Positions 16,550 through 63,703 of a stretch of 64,000 bases of DNA are shown one piece after another; position 1 is the stretch's first letter; each line of letters starts with the position of its first letter. Below the pieces are notes generated by a model that searched no databases, was not told the origin of the DNA, and saw only the letters and a list, made by a program, of their open reading frames with translations. The DNA is from a virus. The stretch is taken from IMG/VR virus record IMGVR_UViG_3300029131_000181; one strand, given 5' to 3'. Position numbers and translations under genes: made by a program.

Positions 16550-16550
16550 C

Positions 16551-18807: not shown

Positions 18808-18837
18808 GATAGATTTCTCCTTTGTTATCAATAAAAA

Positions 18838-18888: not shown

Positions 18889-18927
18889 GTTCAATGGGTA
18901 TTGAGTTGTTATTCATGAAGAATTGCT

Positions 18928-25981: not shown

Positions 25982-26862
25982 AACAATTTCCTTTCTCTGC
26001 CCACAATGTTAATATCGTCAGCACTTTTTATAATTGCTTTTATTATATTCTGCGTCAACTCATATTTAGAAATTACATGCTTTTTGGCAGATGCATAAGA
26101 AGCGGCATTCAGACGCATCACATCCTTTTCTTTCGCATTGCGAATCAATCTATTCTCCTTTTGCAACGAAGAGTTGCTGCCGCATGATGTAACGCAGTAA
26201 ATTTTTGGCGACAATATTGTGATAACCATATGATTTGATAAACTATATTCTGTGCCTGTGTTATTCAAACAGCCTGTACCCAGCACAAGCCCTATATCCG
26301 GAAGTAAAATGGCGCTATTGTTTGCTTTATAGATAACGGTTCCTGAACTGTAATATCCAATTTTTACTTTATAGTAGTTCCACTCATTATCAGATAACTT
26401 TGGATGGTTCCCCGTCTGTATAAATTTCATGAAATTGCAAAATGCTTCTTCTGTATCGAACAGTTTTTTTATTTCGTCTATATACGATGGTAGCCTGAAC
26501 AGCATACGCAAGGCATACTCTCCAAGCCAATGCGCAGATTCTTCGGATATTCTATTTTCCGAATTCAAATAAGTTGTTTTATCAATTTCATTAAGAATTT
26601 CGTTCAACTTTTTCGCATCAGAATTCTCAATATCATTGCTCAGGAGTCCTTTTTCAATCTTCCCACGATAGCATTCGTTCCATTTTTTGAGCTCTGGATA
26701 TTCATATAAATTGTTTTCCGCTGCAATACCTTTTACATTTGCCCCTACATGTATAATTTTTCCAGTTTCCTTGTTATATACAAAAAAATTTCCGTCTTTT
26801 CCAGCGAATTTTTTCAGTCGGTATTTTGGCAAATAATGTTGATTTTCATTTTGTACCTTCAT
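25978..26862 (-). CDS. DUF4238-like protein
   Basis: N-terminal NQHYLPKYRLKKFAG resembles the DUF4238 HY(V/L)P(Q/K)F signature. Very AT-rich. ATGA overlap with the downstream HNH gene and about 17 nt overlap with the upstream MTase gene. Confidence 0.6.
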   Translation of the reverse strand: MKVQNENQHYLPKYRLKKFAGKDGNFFVYNKETGKIIHVGANVKGIAAENNLYEYPELKKWNECYRGKIEKGLLSNDIENSDAKKLNEILNEIDKTTYLNSENRISEESAHWLGEYALRMLFRLPSYIDEIKKLFDTEEAFCNFMKFIQTGNHPKLSDNEWNYYKVKIGYYSSGTVIYKANNSAILLPDIGLVLGTGCLNNTGTEYSLSNHMVITILSPKIYCVTSCGSNSSLQKENRLIRNAKEKDVMRLNAASYASAKKHVISKYELTQNIIKAIIKSADDINIVGRERKLL

Positions 26863-32480: not shown

Positions 32481-33812
32481 GTGAAAATCACTTCCAGCTA
32501 TGCTGTGGAAATCAAAAAGCAGAAAATGTTCGACAATACTATAAAGATTTATCGCGAAGCCGTTTCTTTCTTGATTGGTTGTTTTAACAAAGAATGGGAT
32601 TCTATTCAAAAAGTAGAGGGTGCCAAATCTCGAAAGAGTTTTGCCGAGAAGTTAATTCATACTACAAAATACAGCACTGCTAAATATGATTTCGATGCCA
32701 AGTTTTATAAGTTCCCTAGTTACCTGCGCAGAGCGGCTATTCAAGCAGCACTCGGCTCTGTAAGCAGCTACTACAGTAGCCATAAGAACTGGGAAGCAAA
32801 CGGCAAGGTTGACAGGGAGCCAAAACTTCAATGCGATAGATTTTGCTTCCCGGCTTTTTATAAGACCGTTATGTATGAGGAAAGCAACAAACCAAACCAG
32901 TGCTATCTGAAGCTGTATAAAAACAATGACTGGGTTTGGGTTCCTATCGCAATGCGTGCCACCGATGTCAAATACATCACGAAATACTGGTCACATTGCG
33001 AAAAGAGTGCTCCTGCACTCGAAAAGAAGTACGGGAAGTATTTCCTACGCTTTGCCTTCGAGGAAGAGGTAAAACTCTCCGAAACTGAAATTCAAGACAG
33101 GCGTATCTGCGCTGTAGACCTTGGTCTCAATACTGACGCCGTGTGCAGCATCATGACTGCCGATGGAACTGTCCTTGCAAGAAAATTTATCAATTTTGCA
33201 AGTGAAAAAGACCATCTGTATCATGTGCTCAACCGTATTAAGCGTAAGCAAAGAGAACATGGACCTAAGAGTGCTGCTGCTATGTGGCGTTACGCCAAAG
33301 CCTTGAATAACGATATAGCGAAAAAGGTTGCTGCTGCGATTACTGAATTTGCTGTGCTTTATTCTGTAGATGTGATTGTTTTTGAACATTTGTCATTTAC
33401 AGGCAAAAAGCACGGTGGCAGTAAGGCACAGAAGCTGTCGATGTGGAAGCGTAATTCCATACAGGATTATGTGGAACACAAGGCGCACCGCTGCGGTATC
33501 CGGATTTCGCGTATCTGTGCTTGGGGGACAAGCAAACTCGCCTTTGATGGCAGTGGTGCTCTCAAGCGTGATGAAACCAATCGTGCCCTTGCAACGTTTG
33601 CAAGCGGCAAACAATACAACTGCGACCTAAGTGCGAGCTACAATATTGGCGCTCGCTACTTTGTCAGAGAGTTGCTAAAACCCTTGCCAGCGATGGTAAG
33701 GTCTCAGCTTTCGGCTAATGTTCCGGATGTTGAGCGTAGAATCCAAGTTACACTTGCCACGCTTAAAGTTCTGTATCCTGAGCTTAAAAAACTCAGTACA
33801 CAGGCAGCGTAA
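32481..33812 (+). CDS. tnpB: TnpB (OMEGA RNA-guided endonuclease)
   Basis: RuvC-I CAVDLGLNTDAV, RuvC-II VIVFEHLSF, RuvC-III NCDLSASYNIGARY, CxxC-type Zn region. Confidence 0.85.
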   Translation: MKITSSYAVEIKKQKMFDNTIKIYREAVSFLIGCFNKEWDSIQKVEGAKSRKSFAEKLIHTTKYSTAKYDFDAKFYKFPSYLRRAAIQAALGSVSSYYSSHKNWEANGKVDREPKLQCDRFCFPAFYKTVMYEESNKPNQCYLKLYKNNDWVWVPIAMRATDVKYITKYWSHCEKSAPALEKKYGKYFLRFAFEEEVKLSETEIQDRRICAVDLGLNTDAVCSIMTADGTVLARKFINFASEKDHLYHVLNRIKRKQREHGPKSAAAMWRYAKALNNDIAKKVAAAITEFAVLYSVDVIVFEHLSFTGKKHGGSKAQKLSMWKRNSIQDYVEHKAHRCGIRISRICAWGTSKLAFDGSGALKRDETNRALATFASGKQYNCDLSASYNIGARYFVRELLKPLPAMVRSQLSANVPDVERRIQVTLATLKVLYPELKKLSTQAA

Positions 33813-35854: not shown

Positions 35855-38050
35855 TTACCTCCTGGTTCTTGCCGCCTTCTGTTGTTCGACCCACGCTTCG
35901 GCTTCCTCTACTGTGGCATACACTGCCGTCTCACCGCGCCGGGCAATCTGCTTTCGGGCATTCTGAGCTGCCTGCTCACTCTTGTAAGTTTCATAGCCAA
36001 TGTAGGACCCATCCCATCGGGCAAGGCAGCAATAATATTCGTGGCTCTTAGCGGGAGCTGTCGGGACAAAGGGAGGAGGTACTGCGGGTGTTGCCTGAGT
36101 CGGCTGTGCGGCAGGAATCGGTGTTCCAGTCTTTCTGGCAATTAGATTCTGCTTTTCTGCCATCCAGGCATCAGCTTCCTTCGTATAATAGAAGTACTTT
36201 GCTTCGCAAGTATTGAACAGTGAATAATACAGATTCAACATTTCTTTTTCACTGTTGCAGACCTTCTTGCGAGCCAAATTGTAGCTTGCATCGTAGTAGC
36301 AGCAGATGAAAGCATCCCCACGCGGTGCTTTCTTCGTCTCGTCTTCCTTGTAGTCTGGATACAGCTTGGCGAGGTCTTCTGCCGTATTCTTTTCCGGGTC
36401 CAGCGTGGATGCGTCGAACCCATTCGGAAGTTTCCAGTCATGAGAACTGATGATGTCCAAAAAGCTGCTTGCATAGCGCAATGTCCAGCGCCCAACATGG
36501 ACGAACCCAAAACTTTCAAGACACCGAATCTGTTTCGGGGTAGCCATTCCGCTGGCTCTGCGAGCAATGAGTCGTTTGAGAATTGCAGCGGCAAGGCCCT
36601 GAGATTTGATGGCATCCCCTTTTACGCCGTAGCACGAAATACTATCGATGATGTCATCGGAAGGCTCCTGCCTCTCACTCTCAAACATCGGCTGATAATC
36701 GTTGAGTTCCGGCGCTTCGATGCTGAAAATGTACTGCAGCGGGTCAACCAATCCTCTCGGCTTTTGACGCTGTGCCTTGAGCTTGCGCTGAATCGTATCC
36801 TGCTTTTCGAGTTCACACAGTGCTTTCCGCTTTTCCTCGTCCAGCTCAGTCTGTGCTTCCTCGATTGCCTCAATCAGCCCCAATTCAGGACTCCCGAAAT
36901 TCTCCTGGCTATTCGAACCGGTGAGTGCCGCATCCGCCAGCATATCGGTGGTCTTTTGTGCCACTTCTTGGTCTTCACAGAAAATATCAGCAGGATGGCA
37001 AAGACTATGTTTCTTTGTCAGCCACAGGAAATCCAGCACGAGAAGATTCTTTTTCCCTTCACACAGACGTGTTCCGCGTCCCACAATCTGCGCATACAGG
37101 CTGCGGCTCCTGGTAGGACGCAGGCAAATGATGCAGTCAACGGTCGGGCAATCCCAGCCTTCCGTCAGAAGCATCGCGTTCGTGAGCGCCTTGTACTCGC
37201 CGTTGTCGAATCCTTTCAGAACGTCCTCGCGGTCCGCAGACGCGCCATTGACTTCTGCAGTCTTGAAGTTCCGCTTATTGAGGATATTGCACAGTCTTTT
37301 GCTGATTCGTACCAGAGGCGTAAAGATAACGGTCTTTCGGTTCTGGCATTCTCGTACAATGGCATCCGCAATCGTGTCCAGATACAGGTCAAGAACATTG
37401 CCGAGGTCCTGAGCACTGAAATCACCGGCGTTGATATGGACTTTGCTGATATCCACCTTGACAGGAATCGTCTTCGTGTTGATTTTGCAGAGATAACCTT
37501 CCCGAATTGCATCCGGAAGCTTATATTCAAATGCAAGACTATCAAAGATATCAGATAGGGATTTCATGTCGCTTCGGTCGGGTGTTGCGGTCACGCCCAA
37601 CACTTTGGCATCGATGAAATGCTCGAGAATTCCCTTGTAAGTTTTGGTTGCCGTGTGATGCGCTTCATCAATGATGATAGTCCCGAAATAATCACGCGGA
37701 TACTTCATTAACCGATTCTGCTTAGAGAGAGTCTGTACACTGGCAACCACGACCATCTTATCGGAATCGAGCGCCGAGCTTTGTGCTTTCTCTAACGCGG
37801 TCTCTAGCCCCGTCACCATCTTGAGCTTGTCGCTTGCCTGCTGTAAAAGCTCTTCCCGGTGCGCAAGAATCAAAACGTGTTCGCCCTTTGCCACCTGGTC
37901 GTTCACGATGCTTGCAAACACAATAGTTTTGCCGGTTCCGGTCGGCATCACAACCAGCGTTTTCTTATTCCCGGCATCCCACTCCCTGTGAATCGCTGCA
38001 GCAGCTTCCTGTTGGTAGGGCCGGGAGTCAATCTTCTTTGTCATTGTCAT
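35855..38050 (-). CDS. SF2 DEAD/DEAH-box (ResIII-like) helicase
   Basis: Walker A PTGTGKT, DEAH box IIDEAHH, motif VI QIVGRGTR. 731 aa with a Pro/Ala-rich C-terminal extension. Confidence 0.8.
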   Translation of the reverse strand: MTMTKKIDSRPYQQEAAAAIHREWDAGNKKTLVVMPTGTGKTIVFASIVNDQVAKGEHVLILAHREELLQQASDKLKMVTGLETALEKAQSSALDSDKMVVVASVQTLSKQNRLMKYPRDYFGTIIIDEAHHTATKTYKGILEHFIDAKVLGVTATPDRSDMKSLSDIFDSLAFEYKLPDAIREGYLCKINTKTIPVKVDISKVHINAGDFSAQDLGNVLDLYLDTIADAIVRECQNRKTVIFTPLVRISKRLCNILNKRNFKTAEVNGASADREDVLKGFDNGEYKALTNAMLLTEGWDCPTVDCIICLRPTRSRSLYAQIVGRGTRLCEGKKNLLVLDFLWLTKKHSLCHPADIFCEDQEVAQKTTDMLADAALTGSNSQENFGSPELGLIEAIEEAQTELDEEKRKALCELEKQDTIQRKLKAQRQKPRGLVDPLQYIFSIEAPELNDYQPMFESERQEPSDDIIDSISCYGVKGDAIKSQGLAAAILKRLIARRASGMATPKQIRCLESFGFVHVGRWTLRYASSFLDIISSHDWKLPNGFDASTLDPEKNTAEDLAKLYPDYKEDETKKAPRGDAFICCYYDASYNLARKKVCNSEKEMLNLYYSLFNTCEAKYFYYTKEADAWMAEKQNLIARKTGTPIPAAQPTQATPAVPPPFVPTAPAKSHEYYCCLARWDGSYIGYETYKSEQAAQNARKQIARRGETAVYATVEEAEAWVEQQKAARTRR

Positions 38051-43570: not shown

Positions 43571-43689
43571 AGGGCACTTCTTCCTTCCGTCTCAAAGACA
43601 ATTTGCCGGGACTGTCTCCCGTTGCCCGCTGCTCGCCGCGTGGAGGCTGTCTTTTGGAGCAGCTGCGCGGACAAAACCGCGCTTTTGAG

Positions 43690-45384
43690 TTACATCTCTG
43701 CGTTAAACAGGTTGCGGAGCTTGTAGGTGATATCCTCGCTGTTGCCGACGATAGCTGCCGCTTCGTTGATGGAAGCGAGCTCCGAAAGACTATCCGCTGC
43801 GTAGTTGTAGCTGATGGTGTAAATGGGGATATCCATACCGGCAATGATGTTCTTCGTATCGGAGAAGCCATATCCGGTATTGTTGTCACCGTCCGTGAGC
43901 ACAAAGATGATGGGCGTGCAATTCCCACCCAGTTCCTGAGATTTCTGGTAGATGCGGTCCATAGCAACGCAAAGACCGTTGTACATTGCGGTGCTGCCGT
44001 TCGCATCGAGGGAGTTCACGGCACCCTTATACAGAGTTTTCTGGGTCAGAGAGAACTGGTTAATGGGCAGGTATTCCCTGACATCTGAATCAAAGCCAAT
44101 GATGCCGATATAGTTGTCGTCATTGATATACTGGATGGTGTTTATCATCGCGGTTTTCAGGGCATTCAGGGGTTCGCCGCGCATCGAGCCGGAAGTATCG
44201 ACAACGAACTCTGCCACAATAGGAATGCCTGAGTCCTTCTCTTCTTTCCAGACACTCTGAGCCTGTGCGATGGTGTTGCCATCGTATGCCTTGCCTGTAT
44301 AAGCATAGTCGTCAAGACCATTGAATCCGTCCTTGGTCGCCTCTGCCTGGTTCTGAGCGCAGAAGGAAACGAAGGCAGCAATAACTTCCTTCTTCTCCGC
44401 AGAGACATTCCCGATGGAATACAGAGGATTATCGTGCCGTACACCGAACGGGATGAACTCGTAGTTGCGCTGTAAGGTCGGGTCATTCTGATAAGACTGA
44501 TACTCCATGACAACGCCGTCCACGATGCCCTTGTCTGCCGACTGGACCATCTGCTGGGTCGTGAAGGATACGAGAGGGACGTTCGCTTGAAATTTCTGGA
44601 AATTCTCAACAGCAGCCGTATCGACAATCGTATCGCTGCCGCTGCTCGCAAGAGCCTCAAGCAGAAAATTAAGACCCGTAGCACTTGTGTAGGGGTTCGA
44701 GTATCCCATCATGAGTTTGCCATCGATGGTTGCGTTCAGAACGGAAGAAACAGACGCTTCACCGTATTCAGAGCGAAGCATATCCCCTGTCTTCTTTGAT
44801 ACGAGAATACCCGCCACATTGCCGACCAGACGGTCAGCCTCAACGGTCAATTCTACGCCCTCGTTCTTCACCAGCTCGCCAAAGAGCGTATTTGAGGGGG
44901 TATAGCACTCGGGCTGATACTTTCCCGTCGAGATGTACTCAGCCGCCGTACCGGACGGAATGGAGCGCAGGGAGACACTCATAGTCTTGTCTCCGGAAGT
45001 CTTGTTGTGCTGGGCGTTGAACTTCTTTGCCATTTCGGTCAGGAAAGAATCTGAGCCGGACTCTGCTGCTTTCTCGCCAGAGGAAAAGATTTCGATGTTC
45101 ACATCTCCGTTTCCTACGACCACGAATGGGTAGGAGGATTCAATGTCGGGCAGTTCATCCTTTGCATCAAGGAATTCAGAGACATCCAGCTGCTGAGGAT
45201 TGACCTTGACCTCCTGCACGCCGATGCGCTTCATCTTGCTGCTCAAGTTGGCATATGCCTGCTCGGACGTCATTGTACTAATGCTGACGTTTGAGTCCCT
45301 CATCACCGTCATCGAAAATACTCCGAGAACAACGCCTACCACAGCAATGGTTGCAACCACAGGGAAAATGTTCTTTTTTGTCAC
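43690..45384 (-). CDS. membrane-anchored vWA-domain protein (TerY-like)
   Basis: N-terminal TM helix. C-terminal von Willebrand A domain with MIDAS DTSGSM and later LTDGDNN. Confidence 0.75.
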   Translation of the reverse strand: MTKKNIFPVVATIAVVGVVLGVFSMTVMRDSNVSISTMTSEQAYANLSSKMKRIGVQEVKVNPQQLDVSEFLDAKDELPDIESSYPFVVVGNGDVNIEIFSSGEKAAESGSDSFLTEMAKKFNAQHNKTSGDKTMSVSLRSIPSGTAAEYISTGKYQPECYTPSNTLFGELVKNEGVELTVEADRLVGNVAGILVSKKTGDMLRSEYGEASVSSVLNATIDGKLMMGYSNPYTSATGLNFLLEALASSGSDTIVDTAAVENFQKFQANVPLVSFTTQQMVQSADKGIVDGVVMEYQSYQNDPTLQRNYEFIPFGVRHDNPLYSIGNVSAEKKEVIAAFVSFCAQNQAEATKDGFNGLDDYAYTGKAYDGNTIAQAQSVWKEEKDSGIPIVAEFVVDTSGSMRGEPLNALKTAMINTIQYINDDNYIGIIGFDSDVREYLPINQFSLTQKTLYKGAVNSLDANGSTAMYNGLCVAMDRIYQKSQELGGNCTPIIFVLTDGDNNTGYGFSDTKNIIAGMDIPIYTISYNYAADSLSELASINEAAAIVGNSEDITYKLRNLFNAEM

Positions 45385-52320: not shown

Positions 52321-52998
52321 TCATTGGGGATTCACTATCGGCGTTGCTGTTCTTGCTTGTGGGTCAATGGAATAAGTGGCGTCAATGCATACCGTATTGC
52401 TCCCTGTGTCTTTTCTCACAAAAACTGGCATTACAATTTCTGTGATGGATGTTGGGTCATTGCCATTCTCTGCATAGGTTTCGGCATATTCCTGCCAACG
52501 GATATCCACGTAGGCATTAGAATGTGGTTCCAGCAATGTTGTTCCTCCCGGGGTACACTCAAAGCCATTGATGGAGCCTTTATCCAGAATGACATCGATA
52601 CGGTCGTTGGTTTTGTTTTCGTAGTAGGCTTTTGCCGTATAGCCCATGAAACTATCAGAATAAAATCCGCAAACGACCATGCTGCAGGCATTATTGTCGA
52701 ACAGCACAATATCCGTGGGCTGAATCTCGTGTTTTGGTTCTGTCGCGTTCTCTTCACCTTTCGGATAAATCACAAAGTCATCATCGACAGGGTCATCACG
52801 ATTCGACACATCCCATTCTGCTTCATCATAGACATCGATGTGAAGTTTGACGGTATCGATGTCTTGCGGTTTCACTCCATAGATTTCCAGTCCTGCTTTA
52901 TCCCACGAAACGACCTCGGTGGTTTTCACTCCTGGTCCAATTTCCGGGAACCAACTGGTATCTGCCGGGATTCCATAAAATTTGTGCGTAGGGCACAC
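52321..52998 (-). pseudogene. lipoprotein gene, 3' portion (split by the IscB element)
   Basis: About 60% identical to the C-terminal 225 aa of the intact paralogue 55365..56444 (for example YPKGEENATEPKHEIQPTD; GSINGFECTPG). Lacks signal peptide and start context. Confidence 0.6.
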
Positions 52999-54504: not shown

Positions 54505-54883
54505 GCAAGATACTCCTTTCGTTAAATAGTAATGAAACTATAAGTCAGGGCTTGCGCCCCGTGGTCCACTTCGCCAATGTTATGCACTGTTTTAGCCTTT
54601 CGGCATGGCTTACGCACTTCTCCTACCCTTAGAGATGTTTAACGTAATATGTATCAACGGCTTGCACCATTGACACATACGCTGCCCGCAGAGCCCGACA
54701 CTTGTGGAGCATATCGGGGTGCCTATATTATTAGTACACAACGTAGTTTTCCCCACTGCCGGAGCAATGGGCTTAGGCTAATCAACTGGGCTTACAGGTT
54801 GCCCCGCAAGCCCCGTCTATAACCGGTGAACCGGTTTAGGCGGGGTTGTTGACTCAAGGACGAGCTGCTTGTGATAGCGCAAA
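54505..54883 (-). ncRNA. IscB ωRNA (candidate), encoded immediately upstream of iscB
   Basis: About 370 bp ORF-free GC-rich region with many hairpins (GGGGCTTGCGGGGC..., CCACGGGGCGCAAGCCC...). The architecture is as expected for IscB. The guide would lie at the 54850-54883 end. Confidence 0.5.
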
Positions 54884-55220
54884 GAGTTTTGTCATCCGTT
54901 TTATTTTGGAAATCAACGGTCCAGTAGTAGCCATAGCTGTCATCATAACCCACGTTCTGCAAGATGATGGTACAGGTATCGTTGTCGGCAATCGTCTGTG
55001 GCTGGAAACTCTCATCGAACTGGATGTCGGGTTCAGCCGTTGCATTATCGGCAGCACTACTTGCAGTACTCGTTGAAGAGTCGCTGGTGCTTTCCTCGGG
55101 GGATGCAGCATCAGATGTAGCTGCACTGCTGGCAGCAGTACTGGTAGTGTTAGAGCTGCTACAGGCGGCCAGGGAAAGGGCAAGCAAAGCCGAAAGTGCT
55201 AATGATACAACCTTTTTCAT
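54884..55220 (-). pseudogene. lipoprotein gene, 5' portion (signal peptide + N-terminal domain), interrupted by the IscB element
   Basis: MKKVVSLALSALLALSLAAC lipobox. Homologous to the paralogue up to ...FQNKTDDKTL, then reads into the IS and terminates. Confidence 0.6.
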
Positions 55221-55364
55221 GATTTTCTCCTTTTTTCTTTGTATAAGGCTATTATACATCAAAAGCGCTTCGGCATTTTACTTTTCCAGAACGAAACCTT
55301 TATTTACAAAGTTGCAAACGAAGCCTGGGAAAGTTAATAATTTTAATCGCAGGAGGGCGTCAAA

Positions 55365-56444
55365 TTATTCCGATGTTGTCACGGAATTTGTCTGAGGGTT
55401 AATAGTGAAAGTCTCATCTACATAGATGTCCCGAGTGCTGGAATTGTTTATAACGATTGGCATCACCATTTTGGTGACAGAGGTGGGGTCTTTACCGTTG
55501 GCCTCATAAGTATCTAAATAATCGTAATAGTAGATGTCTACATAGGCATTAGTGTGCGCATCAATTCCCATTGTATCTGTTTCAGGGAAGCACTCAAAGC
55601 CATTTATGGAACCTCCACTTCTAAAGGCAAACATGATTTCTTTATCCGTCTTGTTTTCTATGTAAGCTTTGGCCGTATAACCGTGTAGGCCGTTGGGGTC
55701 AAATCCACAAATCATCAGGGCGCAAGCGTCATTGTCGGCCAGTACGAGGTCTGTGGGTTGGGTTTCATGCTTTGGCTCGGTTGCGTTTTCTTCCCCTTTT
55801 GGATAAACCACGAAATCGTCATCAACAAAGTCATGCCGTGGGATAACATCATAATCTAATTCGTTATAGACATCGAGATAAAAACTTACCGTATTGATAT
55901 CCTGCGGATTGATGTTATAAATTTTAAGCCCGGAACTTTCCCAATGATGAATCTCCGTTTCCTCTTGACCAGGTTCAACACTCGTAAGCCAAAGGCTCGC
56001 ACCCACGCCATTCAATGTGCAGTCATCAAACGAGTAACCGAGTTTTTTATCTGATGTCTTATTCTTGAAATAAAGCTTCCAATAATAGCCGTAATCATCA
56101 TCGTAACCAACGCTCTGCAAGATAATGGTGCATTCTTCATTATCAACAAGTGTCTGTGCCTGGAAATCATTATCGTATGTAATTTTGGGTTCGGGGGACG
56201 GCGTAGGTAAATCGCTGCCTGTGCCGTTCCACACCCTTTCATATGTTTTGCCGTCTTCTGTAGTATATGTCTCTCCTACTTTAATCCCGTCAGGGCTGTA
56301 ATCTTGCGTGCTATTGGAAGTGCTATTTGACGAAGCACTTGACTTGGATTCACTTGAGGCTGCAGCAGAACTATCTGCCTTGCCACAGGCAGCCAACGAG
56401 AGGACGAGCAAAGTCGAAAGTGCTAATGATACAACCTTTTTCAT
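55365..56444 (-). CDS. lipoprotein (intact paralogue of the disrupted gene)
   Basis: Signal peptide plus LAAC lipobox. Start refined to MKKVV with AAGGAGAA RBS. 359 aa. Confidence 0.7.
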   Translation of the reverse strand: MKKVVSLALSTLLVLSLAACGKADSSAAASSESKSSASSNSTSNSTQDYSPDGIKVGETYTTEDGKTYERVWNGTGSDLPTPSPEPKITYDNDFQAQTLVDNEECTIILQSVGYDDDYGYYWKLYFKNKTSDKKLGYSFDDCTLNGVGASLWLTSVEPGQEETEIHHWESSGLKIYNINPQDINTVSFYLDVYNELDYDVIPRHDFVDDDFVVYPKGEENATEPKHETQPTDLVLADNDACALMICGFDPNGLHGYTAKAYIENKTDKEIMFAFRSGGSINGFECFPETDTMGIDAHTNAYVDIYYYDYLDTYEANGKDPTSVTKMVMPIVINNSSTRDIYVDETFTINPQTNSVTTSE

Positions 56445-56964
56445 AGTGTTCTCCTTTTTTCTGTTTGTCAGAGCCATTATACACCAAAAGCACTTTGACT
56501 TATTTATTTTGGGAATATTTATCGCCAATTTGAGCGGATTGCACAAATAGCAAGAAGAAAATCAGTGCATATATGCTTCGACATTTTCCTTTCCCCTCTG
56601 CATTTTCCAGAACGAAACTTTTAATGCAGGCTTTCCCAAACGAAACTTTTGGGAGTTGTGATTTGAACTTGACAGCATTTGCGGCAGCTGAGATTTTGCT
56701 ATTCGCCTGTTCCGATTGTCTCACCACAGATACGAAGCAGCGCATTTCGCTTTTGTGAGATACATCTCATATTTGGAAAGGCTGCGACAAAATTCTGAGG
56801 TTTCAGCGGCTCGCTTGCGACATTTTTCCAACTTTTTGGGCAGCAAAAAAGCCCTACCAGAATGGTAGAGTCTTTGCATGTTTTCTTTCGGTCATACGAG
56901 TAGGAAGCGTCATTTATCCGATATTCTTTCGCGCAAAAAAATGAACTTGCTTCGAGGTGAAGCG

Positions 56965-57005
56965 TAGCAAGTGCTTAGCAAGTTTTTAGCAAGTTCGTAG
57001 CAAGT
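56965..57005. repeat. four perfect TAGCAAGT repeats at exact 11 bp phasing (plus two degenerate copies to 57028)
   Basis: Copies at 56965, 56976, 56987 and 56998, in the 560 bp intergenic region upstream of the lipoprotein gene. Confidence 0.6.
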
Positions 57006-57039
57006 ATGCAACAAGCTCATGACAAGTACAATGTCTACT

Positions 57040-57082
57040 TTTCCGTAGCAAAAAGAAAAGCCACCAAACGATTTTACTCGCT
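57040..57082 (-). terminator. intrinsic terminator after the GIY-YIG/helicase gene
   Basis: GCCGCCAAGCG-aguaaaau-CGUUUGGUGGC hairpin (with G·U pairs) plus UUUUCUUUUU in minus orientation. Confidence 0.45.
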
Positions 57083-57111
57083 TGGCGGCTTAGCTATATT
57101 CCTATACTGTT

Positions 57112-60100
57112 TTATCCAAATAACTCATCCAGCTTTTCGCTCAACGTCCCATCCTTTGCATAAGGCAATGCATCGCACATACGAAAGTTATACTGCTTTC
57201 CGTTATGCTCCTCAGAGAACCCAAGAATATAGTTGGTTGCAATGCGATAAATAATTTCGGACGGAGCCAGACCGTAGACCTGCTTTTCAAAGATGTGTTC
57301 GAGCCGCTCCTTGGAGTTCGGGAACGCAGCTTTCATGCCTTCGCTCTGGTACAGACGCTTCACGATTTCGGTAATGTACAGGCCCGATTTCATGTACAGG
57401 TCAATAAAGGTCTTGTCCGGGTCATTAAAGCATCCGGGATTTTCTTCTTCCAAAAGCGATACCATCTTTGCCACGGTTGCTTTCGGGGTAAAGATTTGGT
57501 TCGTGCGCTGCGGCGGAATGTAGTCGAAGATGTCCTTTTCGTTCGCCGGGTCAAAATAGTTTGCCAGTTCACGCTTTAACCGCAGGAACTCTTTGATGGA
57601 ATCATCAAACACGACTTCATCAAACAGCTTCCCGTCAAAGTGCTTCGTTTCGCCTGTGGCGGTATCCTTGTAATCACCGCCATCGCGCAGGAAACGGAAC
57701 TGCTCCAGCGTGATGCTGGTGACTTCTTGGAAAACTTCATCGGGAACGATTTGGTCGAAGTTGGCAAGAGTGGTATCCTCTGTGCCATAGGCCATCAGAA
57801 ATGACGGTATCGTGCGGGCAAAACCGCGTAGATGGTCGCGGATGGTATCTTCCACATCGTTCTTTTTGCGTTCCTCGATTTGTGTCTCATAGCTGCGGAC
57901 AGTCTCTTTGGCGGCATCTTCCACGAAGCTGCTGACCGTATCATTCAAAGCTGTTTTCAGCTTTTCAGTAGCCTCTGCCTTTTTCTGGTCGAATTCCTGA
58001 TTGATTTTTGCCTGTTCGTGGGGCGCAGCAGCAGCCAACTGCTCATGGCGTTCTTTTTCGATTTGGTTGGTTTCGATACGATAGTCGCCGTAAGTCCGCG
58101 CCACCAAACGGTCCGCATCCTCGCCCAGCTTCTTCTCTACACGCTTGGCATCCGATGCCTTAATTTCCGAGTCATAATTGGAGGTGGCAGCAGCCACGAT
58201 GGGTTTAACAGCCTGCGCCTTGAAAGCCTCCTGCAACGCTTCCAGCGCCTTATCCTTGGGCTGGTTGTCAACGGCGACTTTATCAATAGCCTGCGTGACC
58301 TGCTCGCTGACAGTCTCATAGATTTTATCGCCAAAAATATCATCGGCCAAACCGATAACATAGCCCTCATCTACTTCGACATCGCCGTTTTCATCAACAT
58401 GGACGCGGTCCAAATCTTCTTTCTTGACTTCCTGCTTTTTCGGTTCGTCCACAGGGGTGAACTTTGTAATAATGTTCACAACCGCCTGCGGAGCACCGAA
58501 GATGTTGGAAATGTTCTGGAACAGATAATTGGACATAAATCCGCGATTCACAACTTCTGTGGAGCGAATCTTTCGCGGAATAGAAAGTACCTTTTCGGCA
58601 TCCAGTTCCACCATTTCGCCGTCTTCATCCTCGCCGATGACCGGGAAGAAGTTCAGCAGTTCCTTGATGTGCTTTTTGCGGGTTTCGGTATCACCGCGAC
58701 CATCGGAAGTGCTGGCATACAGGTCGTTCGCGAACTCCTCAAAAATCATAAGAGTTCGCGCAGGGTCGAAGTCGAAGATATAAGCATTCTCCTTGCGGTA
58801 GAACTTGCCTTTGTCGTGGAACAAGCACGGATTCTGCGCACGGAACGCCGCCTGCATATACAGGGATGCACTCTTGATGCTGCTCAGCATCAGCACAGCA
58901 GTCCATTCTGGAATCGTAACGCCCGTGGTGAGCTGTCCGACAGACAGTGTAATTGTCTTGTCGTTCTGGGCGATAGCCTCGGTCACGCTGTCAAACGCTT
59001 TCTTGGCAGAATCATCATCGTTCAATCTACCGTCACCCACTGCCGCGACGACCTTGTAATCCTTGAAAACAGGATGGTTGTTCAGCTTGCGGGCTAGAGC
59101 CTTGGCGCTGTCCACACGGTTCAGCAGCCAAAGCGTATGCTTTAATTCATCGCGTAATTCCGGTGTGGAGAACGGGAACTTAGTCTGTGTAGTCAGCGCA
59201 TCAAGGAACTTGTCCACAGCGCTGTCATGCACAAAGTTTCCGGCCTGATTGACTGCAAAAAACTCATTTAGGTCAAACGCCCATTCTTCTGTCTCGCCGT
59301 TGATTTCAATGCCCTGCTTCAGTTCATCCCGAACGACCTCGGACATCTGATAGGTGAACATATTGAGCTGCGGCAGATTCGCGTAGGGATTCTGCTCGCT
59401 CTGGTCACCCTGCCAATCGCGTTTTTTCTTCTGCTCGTCGGCATAGGTCCAGTTATAGATGGCGTCCTCTTTGAATTTTTCGCTGGCAATGGCCTTAAAC
59501 GGCGTGCCGGACAGATGCAGCGTAAAGTTGCGGTCAATATGGTCGAACGCCACATCCGTCTTGTAGGTATCTACGCCCTCGTGGGCTTCGTCAATAATCA
59601 GAACATCCCAATGAATGTCATTGACTTCTTTCAGCTTTTCAAATTCACCGCCAAAGTAAATGGAGCCTTTGAGGTCCTGCAAGCTGACGAACTCGATGCA
59701 CTTGTAGTCGTCGTTGTTCAGCATATCCAGATACTGATTGCGGCTCACAACAAAAGGCTTCCCCTGCAGGGAGCTGGTATCGCTCACAAACAGATACCCG
59801 GAATCGGGACCGAGGAACTTCTCGTAGTCGGAATACCACGAGTTTGCAATCGCAGGGCGGTTCGTCACGATAAGGACCGTGTCTGCGTCCATCTGTTTGC
59901 AAAGCTCATAGGCCGTAAGTGTTTTGCCGAAGCGCGGCTTTGCGTTCCAGAGGTATTCACCCTTGGTATGCAGGCGGCTGTAATTCAGCGTTTTCTCTAC
60001 CGCATCCTCCTGCTCCTCACGCAGATTATACGGGGTTGCGGCGGTCAGCGATTGCAAAATACCGCGATTCGCACGGAAATCATAGAAGTGGTTGCGGGAA

Positions 60101-60408
60101 ACAGGCCCCGTCACATGGAACCATTCGTTCTTGGGGTCGTTCTCAATGTTCAGCTTGCGCAGATAGCGGTGGAAATCTTTATCGGTAAATGTATCGCCGG
60201 AGCCATCCTCGAATGTAGCATTGCCGCGCCATTCTTCTTTGTATTCCACATCGGCAGTATGGGTCTGCTGGCTCAATCGCTTGTCTACATCCTGCTCGGT
60301 GTAGCCGATTTTCGTCCAACCGTTATGGCGGGCAATCTCAGGAGTGGTATAGGCATAAATCATCGGAACAACGCGGTCCGTTGTTTTGATGACGATTTTA
60401 GTGCTCAT
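57112..60408 (-). CDS. GIY-YIG nuclease + SF2 helicase fusion with C-terminal methyltransferase-N-half-like region (1098 aa)
   Basis: N-terminal PMIYAYTT...GWTKIGYTEQDVDKRL (GIY-YIG-like). Walker A KPRFGKT. DEAH LIIDEAHEG. C-terminal NQIFTPKATVAKMVSLL...DPDKTF and QVYGLAPSEIIYRIATNYIL resemble γ-class MTase motifs X, I and II. Confidence 0.7.
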   Translation of the reverse strand: MSTKIVIKTTDRVVPMIYAYTTPEIARHNGWTKIGYTEQDVDKRLSQQTHTADVEYKEEWRGNATFEDGSGDTFTDKDFHRYLRKLNIENDPKNEWFHVTGPVSRNHFYDFRANRGILQSLTAATPYNLREEQEDAVEKTLNYSRLHTKGEYLWNAKPRFGKTLTAYELCKQMDADTVLIVTNRPAIANSWYSDYEKFLGPDSGYLFVSDTSSLQGKPFVVSRNQYLDMLNNDDYKCIEFVSLQDLKGSIYFGGEFEKLKEVNDIHWDVLIIDEAHEGVDTYKTDVAFDHIDRNFTLHLSGTPFKAIASEKFKEDAIYNWTYADEQKKKRDWQGDQSEQNPYANLPQLNMFTYQMSEVVRDELKQGIEINGETEEWAFDLNEFFAVNQAGNFVHDSAVDKFLDALTTQTKFPFSTPELRDELKHTLWLLNRVDSAKALARKLNNHPVFKDYKVVAAVGDGRLNDDDSAKKAFDSVTEAIAQNDKTITLSVGQLTTGVTIPEWTAVLMLSSIKSASLYMQAAFRAQNPCLFHDKGKFYRKENAYIFDFDPARTLMIFEEFANDLYASTSDGRGDTETRKKHIKELLNFFPVIGEDEDGEMVELDAEKVLSIPRKIRSTEVVNRGFMSNYLFQNISNIFGAPQAVVNIITKFTPVDEPKKQEVKKEDLDRVHVDENGDVEVDEGYVIGLADDIFGDKIYETVSEQVTQAIDKVAVDNQPKDKALEALQEAFKAQAVKPIVAAATSNYDSEIKASDAKRVEKKLGEDADRLVARTYGDYRIETNQIEKERHEQLAAAAPHEQAKINQEFDQKKAEATEKLKTALNDTVSSFVEDAAKETVRSYETQIEERKKNDVEDTIRDHLRGFARTIPSFLMAYGTEDTTLANFDQIVPDEVFQEVTSITLEQFRFLRDGGDYKDTATGETKHFDGKLFDEVVFDDSIKEFLRLKRELANYFDPANEKDIFDYIPPQRTNQIFTPKATVAKMVSLLEEENPGCFNDPDKTFIDLYMKSGLYITEIVKRLYQSEGMKAAFPNSKERLEHIFEKQVYGLAPSEIIYRIATNYILGFSEEHNGKQYNFRMCDALPYAKDGTLSEKLDELFG

Positions 60409-60409
60409 A

Positions 60410-61438
60410 TTATGCCATCTCCTTTACATGAGATTCGATGAAGTCGATTTCCTGCTGTGAAAGACCATACTTCTTGTATAGTTGCTGGTCAATGTCGCGG
60501 ATGGAAGCCGACCAGTTAATGTCAGAGTTGGGGGTGAAATCTTGTAAAGGAACATTCTTCCATGCAGAAATCGATGTGTGCTGCGTAACTTTTAATGTCC
60601 CAAGCATTGCACGGCAAAACTTTGTCTTTATATATTTCACAACACGCTCTGCTTCATCAGAAGTTTCAAATCGTCCCATGCTGATGAATGTCTGTGTAAA
60701 TCCTACATTCGGGCCTTCAACATGAGGAGGATAAATTGCTTCACCAAATTTACCAATTCCGGTTGCTTCTGGCATGACCGCTTTGTAGTAATTCAAATTG
60801 GTTTTATTGTCTATATATTCTCGTTTAATGTACTTATAAACACGCGCATTATTTACTCGCCCAAGGATTGACACATATTCGCCATTAGCTGGTTTTTGAG
60901 AGTAGAACACTTCTGGAATAGAATCAAAGACATTGGTTTTTACTTCATATTCATTTCCCTTACTGAGTTTTGCCTTTAGTTGCGGATTTTCGTCATGCAT
61001 CAACTGTGTAAATTTATAAGCCACTGGCGAATACACTATTGTGCTAAAAGCAATAAAATCTTCCGCATGAAGTATCTTTTTTGCAATGCCGTTGAGTTCT
61101 GGTTCCTTAAAAAAGTGCTCTATAGGTCCGAAATCTTTTCGCTTGTCACGATAGGTAACTGCGACACCGCCTTTAATATCTGTGTTCGGGAAAATGCTTG
61201 CACTAAGCGGTCTATAGTACAAGACTTTATAATGTGGGTCAGAAAGCATTTTTCTATTCCACTTTTTATCGGTATCACCAGCATCGAACAAAAAACGTGC
61301 CGGATGAATCATTTCGACTACCGTTGCCACTTCGAAGCCAGATTCCAAGAAATAATTATAAACAGAAGGAGCCTTTGTATTATCACCAATACCCGTATCT
61401 TGATACGGAGGGTTGCCAATTGCATAATCGAACTTCAT
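60410..61438 (-). CDS. N6-adenine DNA methyltransferase C-terminal half (motif IV NPPY + target-recognition region)
   Basis: MKFDYAIGNPPYQDTG at the extreme N-terminus. No AdoMet-binding motif I in this ORF. AAAGGAGAAAAG RBS. Confidence 0.7.
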   Translation of the reverse strand: MKFDYAIGNPPYQDTGIGDNTKAPSVYNYFLESGFEVATVVEMIHPARFLFDAGDTDKKWNRKMLSDPHYKVLYYRPLSASIFPNTDIKGGVAVTYRDKRKDFGPIEHFFKEPELNGIAKKILHAEDFIAFSTIVYSPVAYKFTQLMHDENPQLKAKLSKGNEYEVKTNVFDSIPEVFYSQKPANGEYVSILGRVNNARVYKYIKREYIDNKTNLNYYKAVMPEATGIGKFGEAIYPPHVEGPNVGFTQTFISMGRFETSDEAERVVKYIKTKFCRAMLGTLKVTQHTSISAWKNVPLQDFTPNSDINWSASIRDIDQQLYKKYGLSQQEIDFIESHVKEMA

Positions 61439-61442
61439 ATCG

Positions 61443-62438
61443 TCACTTTTCTCCTTTCATTTGGTTGTAAGAAATTGTCCGCATAGCACGCCAATCACGG
61501 ATTTTACATTCGTATTTCTTATTTTGCTTAGCCGCCTCATCGAACAGTGTTTCCTGTTCAAAATCACTTGCAAACAGGGATAGCTGCTCGTAGTCGTCTG
61601 ATATGTACAGTTCTTTGCCCGGAATCGTCCCTTTTAGGCCGTCCATCTGCCATATGTTCCAGCAGATTACATTGGCAATCTGGTTCAGTTCCTTGGCAGT
61701 CGGCTCCCGCTGCCATCGCTCCTGCATATAGTCCACGAAGGTCATCAGCAGGTTGATACGGGCAACAAGCAGGTTGTCACCCTGATATTCGTAGCCGTAG
61801 GTACTTTCAAAGGCTCGCCGCGTCCATTTCAGCCAGTCAGCCTCATTATTGGTATTCTCGTTTACGACCCGCAGCTTTCTGTCCAGAATCCCAATTCTGT
61901 TTTCAATCGGAAGTTCTTCGCCGGTAGCGGCATCATAGCGGGATACCAAATAAGGGGCCTCGCCGCAGGTGATTTCCAGCCGCCGAGAATCAACATACCG
62001 CTGCCAATCCCGTTCTTTCTCAAAGTAAACAGGCTCTTTCGTTGGCTCCCAGTGTTCACCGTTCAGCGTATTAAATACGTTCTCGCGTCCAAACCAATCG
62101 TCATCGCATTTATTGTTCATATAGCAGACGACCCAAGAGGGCGTAAAGACCTCGGCTTTGGATTTCGTTCTTGCCGCCTGTTCTTCTTCCGCTTTCAAAA
62201 TGCGCGGCTGGATAAGATTGGCATATACCCCGGAAATCAGCTCCGGCGTGATTTGATTATCCTGCCGATAGCCATCGCCGTATCGTTCATAAGTATTTGT
62301 TGCCCAGATTATATTTTCACCTGTCGTCTTATCTTCCAGCAGAAACCGCATTGCCGTTCTGACCGGATAAGAATACAGGTCAATCAGTTTGCCCAGATGT
62401 GCCACCCCCGCGCAGCGCAGGAAGCAGCCAGAACCCAT
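61443..62438 (-). CDS. DNA methyltransferase N-terminal half (motifs X and I)
   Basis: KAEVFTPSWVVCYM (motif X FTP) and RRLEITCGEAPYLVS (motif I-like (D/E)xxCGxxxYL). The start codon is uncertain because a hairpin directly abuts ATG 62438. Confidence 0.55.
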   Translation of the reverse strand: MGSGCFLRCAGVAHLGKLIDLYSYPVRTAMRFLLEDKTTGENIIWATNTYERYGDGYRQDNQITPELISGVYANLIQPRILKAEEEQAARTKSKAEVFTPSWVVCYMNNKCDDDWFGRENVFNTLNGEHWEPTKEPVYFEKERDWQRYVDSRRLEITCGEAPYLVSRYDAATGEELPIENRIGILDRKLRVVNENTNNEADWLKWTRRAFESTYGYEYQGDNLLVARINLLMTFVDYMQERWQREPTAKELNQIANVICWNIWQMDGLKGTIPGKELYISDDYEQLSLFASDFEQETLFDEAAKQNKKYECKIRDWRAMRTISYNQMKGEK

Positions 62439-62440
62439 CC

Positions 62441-62480
62441 TTACGGAGTTCTTCTCCGTAAGGAAAGGGACGTCCCTTTC
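62441..62480. promoter_or_regulatory. hairpin CCTTACGGAG-N5-CTCCGTAAGG followed by the perfect 16 bp palindrome AAAGGGACGTCCCTTT
   Basis: Read directly from the sequence. Located immediately upstream of the MTase N-half ORF. Confidence 0.5.
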
Positions 62481-62695
62481 GCGCTGATTGTTATTTTTGC
62501 AAACGTTTCTTGCTATTTTATATGGCAGCCTTTCTCTTTAAGCTGCATTTCTGTTATTTGATATTTGCTTTTTATTGCTGTGCAGTTTCAAGCAGGTATC
62601 AAGCTCTTCGTTGAGATTGTATCGGCTGTGGTTCTTGAACTTGAAAATATTATAGCATATAGCACCGTTTCTCTCAACGCTTGTTTTATCGGCAC

Positions 62696-63421
62696 TCATC
62701 CGCCTTTAACTGTCTCAAACTCCAAAGTAATGGTATCCACGATACAAAAAGCCTGTGACCCGTATGGGGTTCCATCACGATAAGTAGAAAACGTATCACA
62801 GGAAAGTACTCCGCCTTCCAGATACACTTCTTTGACCGGCGTATGTCCTACCACTTGCAGATATTCGCCGCCGCGATACAAACGTTTTGCATTCTGATTT
62901 GGAGACAGCTGCGGGCGATACCAGATAGGAGAATCTGTTGCCCACATTGTTTCACAGCTCATTTGGTTGATAGCTTTGACAGCCGCGAGAACATTTTTTC
63001 GGTTCTGTGGTGCTACCCGGAGCTGAACAAAGAGATTTGCAAGGCCGCCGTGCATGAAAAGTGTTTTGTCAATTTTGTGGATATATGCAAGCTGACTTTT
63101 CTTTGGCAAGGCATTTGTCAACTTTTTAATTTCTTGACACACGAGTCCTCTCTTTTCCGGATGGAATCCGGTTTCCGGCTCTCCCCAAATGTAGCTCAGG
63201 TCATGGTTCCCGTAGCACCAGAGAGTATCTGGATGTTCCTTGGCAAACGTGATTGCGGTTTCATAGGTCTCCAGATACTGCGCATCATCATGTACCCCGA
63301 AATCATCTGCCAGGTCCATAAGACAGATAGCTTTGTCTGCAATGCCTTTTTTCATGATGGTATTTGCCTGCGCAAACATCCAGGGTTTCAAATGGCAATC
63401 TGGAATGACTAAGACCTTCAT
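62696..63421 (-). CDS. calcineurin-like metallophosphoesterase (Ser/Thr phosphatase-like)
   Basis: Motifs DCH (VIPDCHLKP), DLADDFG, GNHD, GH (VVGHTP). GAGAGGTG RBS. Confidence 0.75.
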   Translation of the reverse strand: MKVLVIPDCHLKPWMFAQANTIMKKGIADKAICLMDLADDFGVHDDAQYLETYETAITFAKEHPDTLWCYGNHDLSYIWGEPETGFHPEKRGLVCQEIKKLTNALPKKSQLAYIHKIDKTLFMHGGLANLFVQLRVAPQNRKNVLAAVKAINQMSCETMWATDSPIWYRPQLSPNQNAKRLYRGGEYLQVVGHTPVKEVYLEGGVLSCDTFSTYRDGTPYGSQAFCIVDTITLEFETVKGG

Positions 63422-63457
63422 GGCTCTTCACCTCTCTTTTTTGTGTTTACTATTTAG

Positions 63458-63486
63458 ATTATATACGATTCGCACCGAACGTCGAG
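63458..63486 (-). promoter_or_regulatory. promoter P14 with conserved spacer element
   Basis: Minus strand reads CTCGAC-gttcggtgcgaatcgta-TATAAT. Confidence 0.45.
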
Positions 63487-63703
63487 AATTCCGTTCTGGA
63501 GAATCATTGTGTTCGGCCGCCATGGCATCGTGCTGCCGGGCCAAGCTGAGCCACGCCAAATAATGTTGAATCGGAATTCAGTGAAATTGAATTCAACGTT
63601 TTTGAGAATACAAGAAGAGCCCCCGCCAAAGAGCGGAGGCTTGTTTTTGTGCAGCAAAGCTCAAAGTCCTAGGGGTATTTTTCCAAATGCCAGGAAATCT
63701 CCC

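Follow-up and report, generated by a model that had tools for sequence, protein, structure and literature searches.

A split gamma-class adenine methyltransferase with a second, degenerate N-half on a T5orf172-helicase protein: a predicted restriction-modification family

Why would one locus hold two N-terminal halves of a DNA methyltransferase (MTase) and a single C-terminal half? The question is raised by three genes, here called P1, P2 and P3, in IMG/VR virus record IMGVR_UViG_3300029131_000181; the whole stretch analysed, 64,000 nucleotides long, is called the window. P1 encodes a free N-half, P2 a C-half with the NPPY motif, and P3 a nuclease-type domain, a helicase-like motor and, at its end, a second, degenerate N-half called N*. 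The best reading of these sequences is a restriction-modification (R-M) system of Type ISP or Type I-like kind with T5orf172 as its predicted nuclease. It is quite probable that the locus is a motor-driven, ATP-dependent R-M system whose MTase is assembled in trans. A first-pass annotation, made from the sequence without database searches, had reported the three open reading frames (ORFs) and their motifs. Both are present where it placed them, and since the motifs are invariant in family alignments and Pfam and PADLOC agree, they are not a product of chance. Coordinates are collected in Table 1.

The three genes are tightly coupled. P1 and P2 are joined by TGA-cgat-ATG, a 4-nt gap with a change of frame, and P2 and P3 by TAA-t-ATG, a 1-nt gap. 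The stop codons had been described as overlapping, which these gaps contradict. Good ribosome-binding sites had also been claimed. For P2 the claim stands, as an AGGAG-type site precedes it, and another precedes P3; the start of P1 is less certain, with an AAGGA that directly abuts the annotated ATG. Because homologues of P1 begin about 15 residues downstream of that ATG, at MxxLIDxxSYPV, the GTG at 62405 may be the true start. The strongest promoter-like site in 56600..63600 lies upstream of P1, and a terminator-like hairpin lies past the stop of P3. From these two predicted sites, P1-P2-P3 would form a single transcription unit. The palindromes 5' of P1 are possibly a regulatory site for the operon.

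P1 carries motif X (AEVFTP, residues 95-100), motif I (EITCGEAPYL, 155-164; family form LEITCGEAPY, M.TaqI-like), motif II (YGYEYQ, 214-219; family form YGYE(Y/F)QGDN, with an acidic residue) and motif III (WQMDG, 263-267; family form WNxWQMDG), all invariant in family alignments. In motif I, the residues E, C, G, E, A and P occur in 79 of 79 sequences, and the Glu of motif II in 75 of 75. Both glycine positions of motif I hold small residues in P1 and its distant equivalents (G-E-A or G-E-G), and the Asp of motif III is kept. Since the G/A pair, the Glu and the Asp are invariant, and distant equivalents have a textbook GxG, P1 is predicted to be the cofactor half, competent to bind S-adenosylmethionine (SAM). 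Its structural model contains beta1-3, with matches to the N-halves of LlaBIII, HsdM, CamA and PglX. A 327-position MTase_II model of PADLOC covers it end to end (E 2.6e-110); Pfam gives no match in P1, even at E up to 10. The chain closes with a disordered, acidic and variable tail, followed by a conserved C-x-I-x-DWR hairpin at the very end.

P2 begins with MKFDYAIGNPPY, of which the family form, (K)FDYAIGNPPY, is motif IV; NPPY lies at residues 9-12. The Pfam Eco57I match is limited to residues 1-76, at profile positions 73-165 of 171. A 348-position MTase_II model of PADLOC covers P2 end to end, and P2 also corresponds to positions 1012-1359 of the 1359-position REase_MTase_IIG model. P3 residues 288-594 take up positions 334-661 of that same model, which was the first hint of fused relatives. 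In a conservation profile of 58 sequences, P2 is conserved at residues 1-100 (the catalytic region) and 261-342 (the C-terminal region), and its centre, at about residues 121-200, is variable and indel-rich, like a target recognition domain (TRD). Because the NPPY catalytic motifs and the sole variable, TRD-like region are both in P2, this protein is predicted to be the specificity module of the system.

The two proteins complete each other. In the fusions P0213 and P0235, the Eco57I profile crosses the P1/P2 junction at positions 3-171 of 171, with 64-67 bits against 46 for P2 alone. The motif order X-I-II-III-IV(NPPY)-V-VIII, then a TRD-like region, runs across P1 and then P2 with a Rossmann fold, which is the order of the gamma class. 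P1 and P2 thus read as two halves of one gamma-class N6-adenine MTase, cut between motifs III and IV, and together as a predicted enzyme that forms N6-methyladenine at a specific sequence. Searches of PDB sequences with P1 and P2 gave no relevant matches, and no NCBIfam model matches P1, P2 or P3.

The last 250 or so residues of P3 are highly conserved. The chain ends about 20 residues past motif III*, without motif IV or NPPY, and so at the same point of the MTase fold as P1. The motifs of this tail are QIFTPK (X), FIDLYMKSGLY (I*), VYGLAPSE (II*) and NFRMCDAL (III*); the family forms are, in order, QIFTPK, F-x-D-L-Y-M-K-S-G-L-Y, VYGLAP(S/T)E and N-F-R-x-x-D-A-L. With E values up to 10 allowed, Pfam still has no match in the C-terminus of P3. 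By structure, both P1 and N* match LlaBIII best, and PglX, MmeI, DrdV and BpuSI are also among the structural matches. A profile bridge is provided by the canonical small N-halves encoded upstream of the Bacillus cereus and Paenisporosarcina relatives, with the motifs GEVFTPKRIV, LEPAAGEGAFL, LYGVELLEDNA and IAQGNFL. Their alignment with the P1 family has a probability of 96% (E 1.8e-9, over 135 columns, motifs X to III) and that with N* one of 78% (E 1.8e-5, motifs X and I); in the latter, G-E-G stands opposite K-S-G. Because of the structural matches and this bridge, N* is counted as a homologue of MTase N-halves. The MTase-like stretch without motif IV that had been noted at the end of P3 is real, and it is a degenerate N-half.

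N* differs from P1 where the cofactor would be held. All 50 of 50 sequences have K-[ST]-G-[LM]-Y, which places a Lys at the first glycine of motif I, and all 50 lack the acidic residue of motif II, with Ala/Pro or Cys/Lys where the ribose-binding acid is expected. The Asp of motif III and the second Gly of motif I are kept. In Rossmann-fold MTases, a Lys at the first glycine and the loss of the motif-II acid are the changes most likely to abolish SAM binding. On the strength of these two invariant changes, N* is probably a pseudo-half that does not bind SAM.

The front of P3 supplies the other parts of the predicted enzyme. The match of its N-terminus to PF10544 scores 25.1 bits, with a gathering score of 20, and P3 homologues carry PF10544 or PF13455 (T5orf172/MUG113). 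Y18, Y20, G35-Y36-T37, R44 and E95-W96-F97 are invariant in 21 sequences. These include the Tyr/Tyr/Arg/Glu set of the GIY-YIG superfamily, here of its T5orf172 branch, and nuclease activity is predicted; the GIY-YIG-like N-terminus of the first-pass annotation is borne out. So is the superfamily 2 (SF2) helicase, with its Pfam ResIII match and the motifs GKT (161-163, in NAKPRFGKT), DEAH (273-276), SGTP (300-303) and QxxFRxQ (519-525); helicase motifs I, II, III and VI are invariant. The sole PDB sequence match of P3 is the N-terminal helicase region of UvrB. Conservation falls between about residues 650 and 840, in the linker that leads to N*.

Is the separation of P1 and P2 genuine? The two lie in different frames only 4 nt apart, so the split could be an assembly frameshift or mark a decaying pseudogene of a dying R-M system. 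Homologue searches returned thousands of P1-like proteins (about 305-331 aa), as well as P2-like (about 342-350 aa) and P3-like (about 1100 aa) proteins. Copies of the same length recur at 96-97% identity, and near-identical copies at 96-98%, in many independent assemblies; two P1 clusters, for example, hold 434 and 580 sequences, and a P2 cluster holds 49. The form with two separate genes is likewise found again in different phyla. Because near-identical halves of the same length recur in this way, an assembly frameshift at the junction is effectively excluded.

The architecture of the family was surveyed in 82 species loci (duplicate L003 left out). P1 and P2 are adjacent but separate in 20 loci and are separated by inserted genes in another 10. 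They form a single ORF of 650-700 aa in 22. Five loci have P1 followed by one protein of about 1350 aa that holds P3 and P2, and the remainder are contig ends or decayed copies. The classifier was based on regular expressions, and the 16 loci that it called 'P2 absent/decayed' are truncated remnants, frameshifts or motif variants, so these counts are lower bounds. Split forms thus account for at least 30 of the 82 loci; their junctions vary, and each has a ribosome-binding site and a start of its own. When the split, fused and P3-P2 states are placed on a neighbour-joining tree built from the P1 N-half, with 57 informative tips, at least 11 changes are required, which implies repeated fission and fusion at the P1/P2 junction. 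Judged from these loci, the split is old, widespread and recurrent, where the first-pass annotation had considered a very recent one.

Further evidence comes from genomes in which whole genes lie between the halves. Pairs of MNT (nucleotidyltransferase) and HEPN genes, DUF262-like proteins of 616-660 aa, a YhcG-like nuclease of 347 aa and a T5orf172 protein of 217 aa are found there (L004, L024, L036, L039, L061, L065). In a Bifidobacterium longum plasmid, an IS256 transposase lies between P1 and P2 (L085, 2145..3329). Since defence or toxin-antitoxin genes, or IS256, sit between them, the halves work as separate polypeptides, in trans. The P1/P2 junction is a landing site for other defence and toxin-antitoxin genes, and in this it resembles the genes embedded in Type I hsd loci. 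Decayed copies do exist elsewhere (L021, L028, L035, L037, the hybrid P0013 and the interrupted P0018/P0020). In the window, all motifs are intact and invariant and all three ORFs are full length. As an account of the family, artefact or decay is refuted, and its chance of being right is close to nil.

Rearranged alleles of three kinds, close relatives of the P1 of the window, were seen in near-identical strains. P0013 is a deletion hybrid in which P1 residues 1-233 are joined to the last 270 or so residues of P3. In P0018/P0020, unrelated sequence interrupts P1 after YGYEYQGDNL. In P0015, the metallophosphoesterase encoded upstream is fused to a truncated P1. Such alleles suggest that the cassette is still decaying or recombining in the population.

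In a scan of one genome per species, relatives of P1 were found in at least 584 species of many phyla. Their taxa include Bacillota, Fibrobacter, Treponema, Prevotella, Bifidobacterium, Coriobacteriaceae and Ruminobacter, and also Alphaproteobacteria, Planctomycetes, Verrucomicrobia, Flexilinea and the archaeon Methanocorpusculum. Judged from 80 loci listed, the hosts are largely gut and rumen organisms. The three-gene cassette occurs in unrelated chromosomal neighbourhoods, as in a human-gut Clostridia contig, Fibrobacter sp. UWCM and Pygmaiobacter. P3 relatives are also found in 85 records of plasmids, most of which come from enterococci and lactic acid bacteria. A megablast of the locus against phages and plasmids gave no match.

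Such a distribution bears on whether the locus is a defence system at all. Helicase and MTase domains co-occur in DarB of phage P1, and the first-pass annotation had raised a DarB-like anti-restriction function. The cassette could, like that helicase-methylase, be an anti-restriction or DNA-protection factor of a mobile element. One near-full-length homologue does come from a contig labelled as phage: MT835780.1, a 20.5-kb unannotated 'Bacteriophage sp.' contig from human faeces, has at 16230..19326 (H13) a P3 homologue with 66% identity over 93% of the length. This copy could reflect a mis-binned contig, a prophage or a phage-plasmid. It is the only match covering at least 80% of P3 among 50,697 phage records, against the plasmid records and species genomes counted above. 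DarB is phage-encoded and virion-associated, and these cassettes are chromosomal and plasmid-borne; the distinction is one of occurrence. The unrelated chromosomal sites, the setting in defence islands, and the pairing of a nuclease-type domain with a hypervariable TRD-like region, two features that R-M systems typically have, leave a DarB-like role very improbable.

The survey of relatives also shows where the C-half can be attached. Four arrangements were found. In the first, a small N-half is followed by a single chain with T5orf172, helicase, N* and the NPPY/TRD half (Pediococcus plasmid pRS5, B. cereus pMRY14-0074_2, Paenisporosarcina, P. capillosus L066, and L073, L091 and L093). In the second, P1, P3 and P2 are three genes in that order (L. 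plantarum A8 plasmid). The third is the order P1, P2, P3 of the window, and the fourth, seen in the fused loci of the survey, has P1-P2 fused and then P3. The single chains that join N* to a C-half are 1348 aa long in L066, 1417 aa in pRS5 and 1437 aa in Bacillus and Paenisporosarcina. In pRS5, N* runs into motif IV through a normal short spacer, DMIPYAKGEKRLNVKFDVVVGNPPY (...LDMIPYAKGEKRLNVKFDVVVGNPPY), as in an ordinary contiguous MTase domain. An exhaustive search with the N* profile gave 1123 clusters (50% identity), among which 241 have E <= 1e-30. Among 150 cluster representatives listed, 81 end with N* as in the window and at least 28 continue into an NPPY half.

To judge from these sequences, the C-half occurs in nature covalently joined to either N-half. 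The small N-half is also found upstream when sampling starts from P3 or N*. Nearly every intact locus examined, in all architectures, has two N-halves and one C-half, so the extra N-half of the window is not peculiar to it and belongs to a family-wide pattern.

How might such a set of parts work? In the proposed mechanism, P2 would supply NPPY and specificity, and P1·P2 would methylate host sites. P2 on the tail of P3 would form a sequence-specific head for the nuclease-helicase, which would probe the target adenine in the NPPY pocket without methylating it. Unmodified sites would set off translocation, driven by ATP, and T5orf172 would cut or nick the DNA, by analogy with Type ISP enzymes (PMC3553950). 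The R-M assignment together with this division of labour, in which P1 binds SAM, N* does not and P2 serves both, is judged slightly on the probable side. Its strict form, a mutually exclusive exchange of P2 between P1 as writer and the SAM-dead N* as reader, is more tentative and counts as possible rather than probable. In this form, the head on P3 would be a pure reader that flips the target adenine, senses the missing methyl group and licenses the motor, and the whole would be a natural protein-fragment-complementation switch that parts modification from restriction in a single-specificity R-M system. Exchange would explain why the C-half moves between partners (P1-P2 as against P3-P2 fusions) and the two N-halves are nearly always kept.

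Several observations weigh against this mechanism or parts of it. All of its biochemistry is inferred: methylation, SAM binding, ATPase activity and cleavage, and also the association of P2 with P1 or with N*. When the P3 C-terminus is aligned with the P1 family by hhalign, directly or via five type-B fusions, the matches are weak, with probabilities of 41%, 24%, 6% and 0.3%. A T5orf172 domain is not always a nuclease, as it is also carried by CapR, a PLE protein that PMC8096241 presents as a domesticated endonuclease in gene regulation. The dnmA-yeeB-yeeC cluster of B. subtilis showed no restriction or anti-phage activity; Vibrio homologues of dnmA/yeeB are reported to affect phage sensitivity (both PMC9973331). 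One locus, L092, is an exception to the rule of two N-halves: at 3157..7731 it encodes a fused T5orf172-helicase-N*-NPPY protein with the K-S-G motif (P0424, 1524 aa), and no small N-half gene is found anywhere in its 11-kb contig. Either this copy is defective, or its partner lies elsewhere, or N* alone supports methylation. Finally, there are P1-P2 fusions of GKKLFDY type, without an internal Met. Since such a fusion cannot release P2, exchange would there need tethered domain swapping, and a ternary complex is an equally simple account.

These fusions lend weight to a different arrangement of the same parts. P1 and P2 could form a stable and complete MTase, with N* as a docking domain only, and the ternary complex would both methylate and restrict; HsdR on HsdM and the second, non-catalytic Mod of Type III enzymes would be comparable. 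In fusions of P1 and P2 that lack an internal start codon, a free P2 is evidently not required, and all three modules are kept in all architectures. Pseudo-enzyme domains often act as scaffolds. A stable ternary complex fits the data almost as well as exchange does. It fits less well with pRS5 and with the Bacillus and L066-type proteins, in which the canonical short spacer between N* and the NPPY half suggests that N* packs on the C-half itself. In such chains, only by displacing N* could the free small N-half obtain a C-half. Docking without exchange is considered rather unlikely, yet it is to be taken seriously.

L092 is more easily accommodated if N* still binds SAM. P3 and P2, or the fused form, would then make a complete Type ISP-like enzyme able both to methylate and to cut. 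This would leave P1 with an accessory role, for example in titrating P2 as a regulator or in tuning the balance of methylation and restriction during establishment in a new host. The Asp of motif III and the second Gly of motif I are, after all, retained in N*, and in Type ISP enzymes a single chain both methylates and cuts (PMC3553950). The two changes found in all 50 sequences of N* are, however, the most damaging ones for SAM binding. The small N-half moreover keeps its SAM motifs across very distant lineages (LEPAAGEGAFL and LYGVELLEDNA), which is hard to explain for a mere regulator. A SAM-competent N* therefore appears improbable.

With the shared use of P2 by P1 and N* still preferred, the family can be compared with known systems. 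Type ISP enzymes (LlaGI, LlaBIII) have the same module order as the fused relatives: nuclease, SF2 helicase-like motor, linker, gamma-class adenine MTase and TRD. The motor is followed by a gamma-class MTase and TRD here too, with the NPPY/TRD half provided by P2 in trans or fused on in relatives, and relatives are plasmid-borne in lactic acid bacteria. Type ISP enzymes translocate at the expense of ATP and cleave when two of them collide. The first-pass suggestion of a Type ISP-like enzyme with its nuclease replaced is supported by LlaBIII as top structural match and by the single-chain relatives. Four differences remain. The N-terminal domain is T5orf172, of the GIY-YIG clan, instead of a Mrr-family PD-(D/E)xK nuclease. 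Type ISP enzymes are single polypeptides, whereas in the window three polypeptides each carry one piece of the MTase. An additional, free N-half gene stands upstream in nearly all loci examined, fused relatives included, with L092 as the one exception. In PDB sequence searches, the P3 motor matches neither LlaGI nor LlaBIII.

Other types are further away. Type I systems have a separate HsdS with two TRDs, an HsdM dimer and an HsdR with a PD-(D/E)xK nuclease; here there is no HsdS-like gene, the TRD-like region is inside P2 and the nuclease-type domain is T5orf172. PADLOC has no Type I model for P1-P3. Type III enzymes, which had also been proposed as relatives, combine a beta-class Mod, with motif IV before motif I, and a Res with a C-terminal PD-(D/E)xK nuclease. 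The gamma order of motifs and the N-terminal position of a GIY-YIG-clan domain speak against that kinship. Type IIG and IIL enzymes of the Eco57I and MmeI kind, and PglX of bacteriophage exclusion (BREX) systems, share the Eco57I-family catalytic half seen in P2, and PADLOC labels fused relatives REase_MTase_IIG. They differ in having no ATP-dependent motor in the same protein, a PD-ExK nuclease or none, and an unsplit MTase.

M.AquI and M.EcoHK31I are naturally split C5-cytosine MTases, made of two polypeptides from adjacent genes with a single set of halves. The likeness to P1 and P2 lies in one catalytic domain that comes from two adjacent genes. The difference is that the present enzyme would be a gamma-class N6-adenine MTase, cut between motifs III and IV, repeatedly fused and split again, and accompanied by a degenerate second half on a motor.

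A precedent in gene content is the dnmA(yeeA)-yeeB-yeeC type of cluster. Morgan et al. (2009) proposed clusters of an MTase, a DEAD helicase and a GIY-YIG protein as Type I-like R-M systems (PMC2731913), a model with which the mechanism proposed here agrees. Such clusters have the same domain inventory and embody the same Type I-like, helicase-driven idea with a single asymmetric-site adenine MTase (PMC2731913, PMC9973331). There, the MTase is one MmeI-like chain of about 900 aa, and helicase and T5orf172 are on separate proteins, with T5orf172 C-terminal. Here, by comparison with YeeB and YeeC as described, T5orf172 is fused N-terminally to the helicase, and the MTase is of Eco57I type and split, with its N-half duplicated.

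In open-access literature, REBASE not covered, neither a split Eco57I-type MTase whose N-half is duplicated nor a Type ISP-like enzyme with a T5orf172 nuclease was found to be described. The family is apparently undescribed; curators may already know the genes. Databases label the parts generically, as 'restriction endonuclease subunit M', 'Eco57I ... domain-containing protein' or 'DEAD/DEAH box helicase', and REBASE-derived models of PADLOC cover each piece.

Table 1. The three genes, their domains and signals, and other features of the window (aa, amino acids)
Feature	Position	Strand	Basis or remark
P1, free N-half of a gamma-class N6-adenine MTase (predicted)	61443..62438	minus	331 aa; motifs and profiles
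P2, C-half of the MTase (predicted)	60410..61438	minus	342 aa; Pfam Eco57I, PADLOC, conservation profile
P3	57112..60408	minus	1098 aa
T5orf172 domain (GIY-YIG clan), presumed nuclease, P3 residues 17-100	60109..60360	minus	PF10544, E 2.7e-5, profile positions 3-89 of 101
SF2 helicase-like motor, P3 residues ~127-600	58609..60030	minus	Pfam ResIII, residues 127-304, E 8.9e-15
Linker, P3 residues ~601-845	57874..58608	minus	conservation; conserved start, then poorly conserved, charged, helical, coupler-like
N*, second, degenerate MTase N-half, P3 residues 846-1098	57115..57873	minus	motifs, structure, profile bridge
Sigma-70-type promoter-like site upstream of P1, TTGAGA-17-TATAAT with TG-extended -10	62649..62677	minus	11/12 matches, consensus match only
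Palindrome GGGACGTCCC just before annotated P1 ATG	62476..62467	minus	read from sequence
Perfect 10-bp hairpin CCTTACGGAG-aagaa-CTCCGTAAGG abutting annotated P1 ATG	62463..62439	minus	read from sequence
Intrinsic-terminator-like hairpin, 14-bp stem and T-run, 21 nt past P3 stop	57058..57091	minus	sequence
GajB-like UvrD helicase, 908 aa	11848..14574	minus	
TnpB/Cas12f-like gene	14728..15837	minus	
TnpB/Cas12f-like gene	32481..33812	plus	
GmrSD_N+HNH	24845..25981	minus	defence cluster 24845..29813, unrelated to P1-P3
DUF4238 protein	25978..26925	minus	
EcoRI-type adenine methylase	26846..27955	minus	E 3.9e-109
DUF4379 / MTES_1575 restriction endonuclease (REase)-like protein, 622 aa	27945..29813	minus	
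ResIII/SNF2 helicase, 731 aa, Type IV-like	35855..38050	minus	PADLOC Type IV mREase and PbeA models
HDV-like ribozyme HDV-F-prausnitzii (RF02682), full-length	43594..43663	minus	Rfam, 60.4 bits, E 1.2e-8
IscB-like RRXRR + HNH protein, 465 aa	53107..54504	minus	PF14239, E 5e-46

The wider window looks like a defence island seeded with elements of IS200/605 type. In a cluster unrelated to P1-P3, the 622-aa protein could be the cognate endonuclease of the EcoRI-type methylase. A metallophosphoesterase gene upstream of P1 (62696..63421) was considered as a member of the system and rejected, as the cassette occurs in other genomes without it. The IscB-like gene is apparently inserted in a lipoprotein gene, of which an N-terminal fragment (54792..55262) and a C-terminal fragment (52321..52998) remain on the minus strand; both resemble an intact paralogue at 55365..56546. 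Rfam has no family match upstream of the IscB-like gene, where an omega-RNA would lie at about 54505..54790. The HDV-F-prausnitzii ribozyme is found just downstream of an ORF with a VWA domain (43690..45384) and hints at Faecalibacterium or a close relative as host lineage.

Single-specificity motor R-M systems such as Type ISP face a control problem, as one head must methylate host DNA and yet trigger cutting of foreign DNA. The family described here suggests a different solution, in which the modification and restriction heads would be made from a common recognition piece and two cofactor halves. If this is true, it would be a natural split and re-assortable MTase with a pseudo-MTase as methylation reader, and it would offer a compact scaffold for engineering programmable readers and writers. 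Because the family is common and its parts are labelled generically, its recognition would improve the annotation of defence systems and the interpretation of methylomes in gut bacteria.

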